A DNA stretch of 64,000 nt. Source: a bacterium. Its GTDB lineage: Bacteria > UBA8248 > JACPRG01 > G963555815. Both the position numbers and the translations under genes were made by a program. Where the stretch lies: contig CBDHDG010000007.1 of NCBI GenBank assembly GCA_965261595.1, positions 1,024,001 to 1,088,000 on the forward strand. The letters are read 5' to 3'. Shown piece after piece: positions 616 through 1,491 of this stretch; position 1 is the stretch's first letter, and each line of letters opens with the position of its first letter. The notes under the pieces were generated by a model. It was not told where the DNA came from. It did no database searches and saw only the letters and a program-made list of their open reading frames with translations.

Positions 616-1385
616 CTATGCGCCATAGCGGAGCCTCGCGACGGCCCCGCGGGCAGCGAGCTGGCCCCTGGCGTACCGGCCGGGCATTTCCGGCGACTTC
701 CACCGGCCCGCCGTTTGCATATCGACAACGGAGGCCCCGGCCGCTGCGAGCGATTGCGCGGCGCCGACCCGGAGCGAATGCTCCGAAATGCGGCCCTCGA
801 CCCCGGCATCCGCCGCACGGCGCGCGATGATGCGCCGGAGCGAGCGGTCCGCTATGCACTCGTTCCCCACAACCGCGCCGCGCCGCACGCGCCGGAACAT
901 CGGCCCCGCCCGGTGGCCGGCCGCATCTAGCCAAACCTGCACGCGCCGCACGGTCGGCGAGCCTATGAACTGCACGGCGCCCTCGCCCTTTTGGTCTGTT
1001 TTCGAGTACCGGATGGTGAGCCGGCCGGACCCGTCCGTTTCGGTGGCAAGGTCGGCGCAATCGAGGGCGGCGACTTCGGAAACCCGGAGCATTGCATCGG
1101 ACATGAGGGCGACGATTGCCGCATCGCGGAGCCCGGCAAGCGAGCCCCCCCAATTCGCCGCAACGGCCCCGATTGCATCGGCCTGTTCCCATCGGATCCC
1201 AGCGACTTGCCCGCGGCCCCGGTCCCGAGCTTCCCGCCGGAAGCCGGCGAGCACGCGATCCGTTGCCGGACCCGCGGGCGACGGCTGGCCGGCGAGTTTG
1301 GCCCGGAGCTTCGCCGCGGCGACTGCCTGACCGGCGACGGCGGGCGCGCGGCCCGCATCGTGCAACGTCGCGAGGTACGCGGCGG
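616..1385 (-). pseudogene. Cre-like tyrosine recombinase, N-terminally truncated
   Basis: Catalytic motifs RDAA..LRVSE, SKTDQ, HSLR, AGRW, RY present; the ORF's 5' end runs into a CRISPR repeat instead of a normal N-terminal domain. Confidence 0.8.
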
Positions 1386-1403
1386 GGGTTGTAGCGATGG
1401 CGA

Positions 1404-1432
1404 GTGTTCCCCGCCCACGCGGGGATGACCCG
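1404..1432 (+). CRISPR. Solitary type I-E CRISPR repeat (no array)
   Basis: GTGTTCCCCGCCCACGCGGGGATGACCCG, 29 nt, TCCCCGC/GCGGGGA stem, matches the I-E repeat pattern GTGTTCCCCGC-N4-GCGGGGAT-N2-ACCG-like; no second copy seen in the window. Confidence 0.85.
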
Positions 1433-1491
1433 TGCACTTATGGCTACCCGTTGACTGGTTCGACGGAACAATCGAGGAGATTCTGAGATGA
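1432..1491 (+). pseudogene. 3' end of a phage gene, VRR-NUC/endonuclease-like
   Basis: VHLWLPVDWFDGTIEEILR* resembles the W.P.DW...I...L tail of phage VRR-NUC proteins; stop overlaps the next ATG (ATGA). Confidence 0.4.

Follow-up and report, generated by a model that had tools for sequence, protein, structure and literature searches.

How does a single CRISPR repeat come to stand between the broken end of an integrase gene and a run of phage-like genes? This question is raised by positions 1404-1432 of a 64-kb stretch of bacterial DNA, which we analysed at its full length and refer to here as the window. The initial annotation had read the locus as one 29-nt type I-E repeat fused, in spacer register, to phage DNA that starts mid-gene, and had proposed that the junction records either spacer-guided recombination with a phage or an unfinished Cas1-Cas2 integration of an oversized prespacer. 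We therefore asked what the repeat is, what lies on either side of it, and which history would account for both flanks.

The 29-nt sequence, read on the forward strand, occurs once in the window even when up to three mismatches are allowed, and matches were seen in 0 of 100 shuffles. When the exact 29-mer was scanned across the GTDB species-representative genomes, six loci in four genomes were returned (L001 to L006; the window's own locus was not among them), the carriers being a Tabrizicola MAG, a Bosea MAG, an Acidobacteriota MAG and an unclassified Pseudomonadota MAG, with L001 and L004 belonging to one MAG and L005 and L006 overlapping on one contig. The genomes that carry the identical 29-mer are labelled as two different phyla. 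L004 and L005 are regular arrays, of 11 and 64 copies respectively, behind an A+T-richer leader, and in L004 the order (NCBIfam) is cas3-cse1-cse2-cas7-cas5-cas6e-cas1e-cas2e, leader and then array. All 29 of the 29 nt of the window's repeat (100%) agree with the array repeats of these other genomes and, because the identical 29-mer stands in arrays, one of them behind a full type I-E cas operon, 1404-1432 can on this identity be considered a genuine type I-E repeat. The position of the leader in L004 and L005 gives the plus strand as the transcribed orientation of the window's copy. In that orientation, the predicted RNA fold of 1384-1500 contains the expected G+C-rich hairpin, with a 7-bp stem and a 4-nt loop, and by this prediction the repeat has the form of a Cas6e substrate. 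No decay is visible in the repeat, implying that the events that placed it must be recent.

A CRISPR array, with at least two repeats and spacers of about 32 nt, is not present at this position. Local alignment of the repeat with its 100-nt and 200-nt flanks, on both strands, revealed no second copy, even degenerate, within 200 nt of 1404-1432, the scores obtained (14-18) lying within the range given by random 100-nt windows (mean 15.4, maximum 20). These results bear out the initial description of one type I-E repeat, with its exact 29-mer in arrays of four genomes and with no second repeat nearby. The claim that the window holds no cas genes also stood, in that Pfam scans of the window's ORFs found no Cas families, and tblastn with eight Cas proteins from L004 and blastn with the two leaders gave chance-level matches only in the window (best E 0.04). 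This absence is weak evidence, however, because the leader and cas side of the repeat is the left side, where just 1,403 nt of the window are visible, a caveat not raised in the initial annotation. Searches of Rfam, both at the gathering threshold and at E ≤ 10, gave no match to the CRISPR-DR family at the repeat, and a consensus scan of positions 1100-2300, whose power is low at 63% genomic G+C, found no sigma-70-like promoter and no terminator.

From the public arrays carrying this repeat we extracted 141 spacers, or 78 once the duplicate locus L006 (63 spacers) was dropped, and in 77 of these 78 the length is 32 nt. None of the 141 spacers (78 distinct) matches the flanks of the window's repeat, the best flank match being 11 nt, and the composition of the spacer ends showed no diagnostic bias that could be used to tell spacer remnants apart. 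Not all loci with this repeat are intact arrays. In the Acidobacteriota MAG, positions 9960-10090 of locus L003 hold an eroded array, made up of a 9-nt repeat tail, a 32-nt spacer, a repeat, a second 32-nt spacer and a further repeat; this remnant lies among copies of IS256 and IS3 transposases, and the 10 kb around it are free of cas genes. The features of the window around and beyond the repeat are collected in Table 1.

Table 1. Features at and around the solitary repeat, in window coordinates.
Feature	Position	Strand	Observations
IS6-family transposase, C-terminal part, cut by window edge	1-211	+	Pfam DDE_Tnp_IS240, E 0.001
Tyrosine integrase pseudogene without its first 56 codons	616-1383	-	Pfam Phage_integrase 1.5e-12; homologue alignment
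Stub, neither integrase nor repeat; candidate 3' spacer end	1384-1403		17-20 nt; GC 65%
Solitary type I-E CRISPR repeat, 29 nt	1404-1432	+	Unique in window; equals array repeats beside a type I-E cas operon; hairpin
55-nt stretch (spacer remnant, gene tail or 5' UTR)	1433-1487	+	GC 51%; two of three frames open
114-aa gene, first of phage-like block	1488-1832	+	10 relatives plus the window's own entry; no family match
68-aa zinc-ribbon-like gene	1829-2035	+	Weak Pfam rubredoxin-like and DUF7838 matches, below curated cut-offs
DNA methyltransferase N-terminal stub, 54 codons	2125-2289	+	phrog_67 4.5e-11, profile positions 123-160 of 743 only
Terminase small subunit-like gene (terS)	2286-2792	+	phrog_57 8.2e-07
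Terminase large subunit (terL) N-terminal stub	2804-3044	+	phrog_15 2.3e-15; Pfam GpA_ATPase positions 3-48 of 247
332-aa protein	3282-4280	-	PADLOC phage-defence candidate PDC-S31 4.8e-14; phrog_34615 1.8e-32; no Pfam or NCBIfam family
Second tyrosine-integrase C-terminal fragment	4569-5093	-	ORF overlapped by the Tn3-family remnant
Tn3-family remnant	4910-5519		Inverted repeats 4910-4946 and 5483-5519, 37 bp, 97% complementary
P4-like integrative island	5644-9715	-	VapE, primase, AlpA-type HTH, integrase
VapE-domain protein, P4-like island	5644-6684	-	
Primase-like protein, P4-like island	6806-7816	-	
AlpA-type HTH, P4-like island	7809-8123	-	
Integrase with Arm-DNA-binding domain, P4-like island	8558-9715	-	

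On the left, the integrase fragment is contained in a minus-strand ORF spanning 616-1437. The proteins most closely related to it, P0001 and P0002, show 98% identity and are full-length, with 311 aa. In the alignment, identity starts at AAYLATL, which is residue 57 of P0001, meaning that the window's gene has lost the first 56 of 311 codons, a truncation absent from the initial annotation. Before the conserved AAY the window reads ...TLAIATTP and the relatives ...RPLEDGAL, with TTP in place of GAL, and homology to integrases stops at 1383-1386, that is, 17-20 nt short of the repeat. This 17-20-nt stub is a likely candidate for the 3' end of a spacer, and it fits the “spacer ending in 1385-1403” envisaged by the initial annotation. 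We found no match to the stub elsewhere in the window or in the fetched repeat loci, no self-targets of the repeat flanks of at least 15 nt in the window or these loci, and no blastn match of 600-1500 among plasmids.

Three similarities in this region were considered and discarded. The stub is not the end of a Tn3-type inverted repeat, being unlike the window's own 37-bp Tn3-family repeats; a 10-nt run, spotted by eye, that it shares with one spacer of L003 was taken as chance, as it occupies different positions in the two; and a 21-nt similarity between 1351-1371 and 3229-3249, which could have indicated that the phage block splits the integrase gene, was rejected because the protein similarity stops. 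Separately, P0003, an integrase homologue of 301 aa, lacks 10 residues, and this deletion stops a single residue away from the break in homology seen in the window (1383-1390); the spot in the integrase gene may be prone to recombination.

On the right, G+C content falls from 72.5% in the integrase to 51% in the 55 nt that follow the repeat, against 62.8% for the whole window, and the fall coincides with the repeat. These 55 nt contain a ribosome-binding site (GAGGAG, 1473-1478). The frame that begins VHLWLPVDW is open across them for 19 codons and runs into the next gene with an ATGA overlap (1488), and a second frame is open too; the same kind of ATGA overlap joins the 114-aa and 68-aa genes (1829). 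The 20-aa translation of the stretch had no PHROG match and one chance-level phage match (E 0.9). Phage DNA could start at 1433 or anywhere up to about 1470. Both the claim that this DNA starts mid-gene and the claim that it does so in spacer register are accordingly plausible rather than demonstrated, given two open frames out of three and a 20-aa piece without matches.

The gene at 1488 has relatives that are 70-98% identical at the protein level (P0122-P0127), and its start, MTADDD, is kept in 11 of 11 aligned sequences (10 database relatives and the window's own entry). Neither the 114-aa nor the 68-aa protein matched a known family, a PADLOC model or a solved structure, and the Protein Atlas gave no usable match for the former, whose AF2 model, a helical hairpin, is poor (pLDDT 61.6, pTM 0.27). 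Searches with tblastn, using the 114-aa protein against phages and plasmids and the terS protein against phages, returned nothing, and distant blastn of 1300-3100 against phages gave a sole match of 117 nt, in a phage methyltransferase gene. The stop of the methylase stub (2280-2290) overlaps the start of the terS-like gene, a junction left by an internal deletion within the phage block. The phage-like operon of about 1.6 kb described initially to the right of the repeat thus holds as regards its character, by the terS, terL and methylase profiles, but the segment itself is an internally deleted and truncated 1.6-kb remnant.

This remnant is one of several, as the first 5.5 kb of the window are a patchwork of mobile-element fragments. 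The IS6 part matched, by blastn, regions of alphaproteobacterial plasmids annotated as IS6 family transposase, and when 1-3600 was compared with plasmids it alone matched, among the matches listed. A faint IS110-like trace (about 28 aa, E 0.043) is also present in these 5.5 kb, and the inverted repeats of the Tn3-family remnant enclose just the C-terminal 163 aa of a Tn3 transposase. Apart from the P4-like island, the remaining window is core chromosome, with rpoBC, ribosomal proteins, tRNAs and two tuf copies, covered by two stretches of 1,226 bp each (35111-36336 and 51748-52973) that are 100% identical. Tandem copies of a unit of roughly 70 nt occupy 14483-14697 (81-86% identity), and an inverted copy lies at 60315-60383; the unit may be a small dispersed intergenic repeat. 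Thiamine-related genes are preceded by a TPP riboswitch (10911-11012; Rfam RF00059, 65.3 bits), and a TMP-TENI gene occupies 12541-13212.

Which history would leave a pristine repeat in such surroundings? The one that we put first, tentatively and short of calling it probable, is that the repeat, the 17-20 nt preceding it and possibly some bases after it come from a type I-E CRISPR array and lie, as a small shard, among mobile-element fragments. Through successive insertions and illegitimate deletions, in an order that we infer, an integrase gene and a spacer, each broken in its interior, would have been brought together with pieces of a prophage, the latter joining at the repeat or shortly after it. 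The shard left by these events would measure 49-87 bp and be composed of a spacer stub, the repeat and perhaps part of the next spacer. The stub before the repeat resembles what a cut spacer would leave, the eroded L003 locus offers, by analogy, a precedent with the same repeat, and the setting is a patchwork in which neither leader nor cas fragment was found in the window, nor a promoter in 1100-2300. The tight ATGA overlaps at 1488 and 1829 also make it plausible that the phage block was cut inside a gene and does not start at a native intergenic repeat. Eroded and orphan arrays, as described in a review (PMC8616872) and by Bernheim et al. 2019 (PMC7145637), are similar in being CRISPR loci without neighbouring cas genes, in IS-rich regions; they differ in that here one repeat is left, and both sides are foreign mobile-element fragments, not leader and trailer. 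Against an array shard, the public spacers (141, 78 distinct) match neither the stub nor the 55 nt, the window holds no other trace of CRISPR-Cas, a piece of 49-87 bp would be the smallest in the patchwork, and a repeat free of decay requires the events to be recent. In addition, the repeat is co-directional with the phage operon and G+C drops from 72.5% to 51% where it lies, both of which would fit a repeat carried by the phage. In that case, which we judge possible but unlikely, the repeat would be a solitary repeat unit (SRU) native to the phage-derived DNA, the relic of an RNA anti-CRISPR (Racr) whose transcribed hairpin is bound and cut by the Cas6e of a cognate I-E system and ties up Cas proteins in dead-end complexes, and a deletion would have taken away all sequence, the promoter with it, beyond about 20 nt upstream. 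SRUs and Racrs of viruses, prophages and plasmids were reportedly treated by Faure et al. in 2019 (as cited in PMC10651486). The class is a catalogued one in viruses and prophages: Camara-Wilpert et al. 2023 (PMC10651486) report 2,103 units from viruses and 90 from plasmids. I-E belongs to the subtypes catalogued and validated there, with about 234 rows by our estimate (“I-E” occurs 468 times in supplement file 3, and twice per row in 15 rows) and with two I-E Racrs experimentally validated as inhibiting a I-E system. SRUFinder, as defined in that paper, requires a known repeat to be matched with identity and coverage of 90% or more, no full or partial repeat within 100 bp, and an intergenic site on a virus, prophage or plasmid. 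In the first two respects the window's repeat corresponds descriptively: it matches a host-type repeat at 100% over its full length, the 100 nt on either side hold no partial repeat, and it adjoins phage genes and no cas gene. As for the site, no intact gene lies over the repeat; phage genes do follow it, but as a 1.6-kb remnant in a mosaic, and its left neighbour is a pseudogene. A phage origin would also agree with the orientation of the repeat, which is that of the operon downstream, with the ribosome-binding site and the conserved MTADDD start, the latter 55 nt downstream, and with the fall in G+C at the repeat, and it requires just one nearby breakpoint. That breakpoint, however, would need to have landed within 20 nt of the repeat by chance, leaving about 20 nt of possible native upstream sequence, and no promoter-like site was found in 1100-2300. 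A functional Racr would be expressed as a small RNA, driven by its own promoter or that of an operon, in a host with the cognate CRISPR-Cas subtype. Unlike the published units, moreover, this one lies in a fragment of a prophage and not in a functional element, and the exact 29-mer is absent from the supplements of PMC10651486, the SRU table included. No link to acr genes, which are frequent neighbours of Racrs, is recognisable, the neighbouring 114-aa and 68-aa proteins matching no known family or solved structure, and the ATGA overlap that ends the 55 nt, typical of the gene junctions in this operon, hints at a truncated upstream gene.

The mechanism favoured by the initial annotation belongs to a broader alternative, in which a phage recombined with a chromosomal type I-E array, either between spacer and protospacer or between a repeat of the phage and one of the array, and later deletions removed the rest of the array. 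We consider this improbable as a whole, and its spacer-guided form, taken alone, slightly more so. Recombination of spacer with protospacer would likewise put phage DNA right after a repeat in spacer register, and such an exact register is compatible with one reading frame, open from immediately behind the stop codon inside the repeat as far as the ATGA (1488); the left stub also resembles the end of a preceding spacer. Homologous stretches as short as 32 nt recombine poorly, which we counted against this reading. A spacer equal to 1433-1464, which the initial annotation had suggested searching for in arrays with this repeat, is not among the 141 extracted from public arrays (78 distinct), all of them in GTDB species-representative genomes, and the window contains no remnant of an array or of cas genes. 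The model needs, in addition, another independent cut within 20 nt on the left, and as formulated initially it leaves this second, unrelated breakpoint, with its truncated integrase and stub, unexplained. Recombination between spacers and their targets has been reported in staphylococci (Varble et al. 2019, as cited in PMC8616872, for phages and CRISPR loci), and it has also been proposed that repeats guide the integration of phages into arrays (PMC8616872); the cases as summarised there concern staphylococcal systems and transducing particles, and not a chromosomal I-E scar. The tests that we ran gave no support to the spacer-guided mechanism, and both an array shard and a phage-borne solitary repeat are simpler and fit the locus equally well or better. 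It is also conceivable, but very improbable, that the junction is an artefact in which two real repeat-bearing loci were joined at the repeat during assembly. CRISPR repeats are classic mis-join points, and the arrays of L001, L002 and L004 lie at contig ends in the public assemblies. The window, however, contains no N and resolves the two identical 1,226-bp tuf copies, a rare outcome for short-k-mer assembly that speaks against a mis-join of this type at a repeat of 29 nt, and its own 114-aa protein is recorded on four contigs, the longest of 1.38 Mb. A mis-join would, besides, still require two real molecules, one with integrase, stub and repeat and another with repeat and phage DNA. As for the unfinished Cas1-Cas2 integration of an oversized prespacer, its sole point is that phage DNA may abut the end of the repeat. 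No leader was found next to the repeat, which is not duplicated, and from the established mechanism of integration a half-site intermediate would be a branched molecule that is not inherited as duplex, so that we regard this origin as implausible, with next to no chance of being correct.

Returning to the array shard, we consider it most likely inert. A mature type I-E crRNA consists of a 5' handle, a spacer and a 3' hairpin, which one repeat cannot yield in Cas6e processing. With one repeat, no leader and no recognisable promoter, the shard would therefore give no mature crRNA, and its pseudogene neighbours and the mere 20 nt or so of upstream sequence also point to inertness. If the repeat were transcribed at all, its RNA could, by analogy with Racrs, act solely as a decoy for Cas6e and Cas7.

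Lone CRISPR repeats beside phage genes are an already known kind of locus, and the one analysed here is at most another example. If it is an array shard or the relic of a solitary repeat, it has little importance: a class already catalogued gains one more member, and the locus warns against taking a lone repeat next to phage DNA as sufficient proof of spacer-guided capture. A native phage repeat at this point in related elements would add an alphaproteobacterial candidate to the type I-E Racrs, and a PAM-flanked protospacer there would document a natural exchange of DNA between phages and I-E arrays. If, after all, homology led a temperate phage to recombine with a chromosomal I-E array, through spacer and protospacer or through solitary repeat and array repeat, which we think improbable on the evidence above, the junction would be its natural fossil. 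Such a scar would be the first to be seen beyond the staphylococcal systems of the laboratory, and would mean that in Alphaproteobacteria-like genomes CRISPR arrays can offer phage DNA a landing pad.
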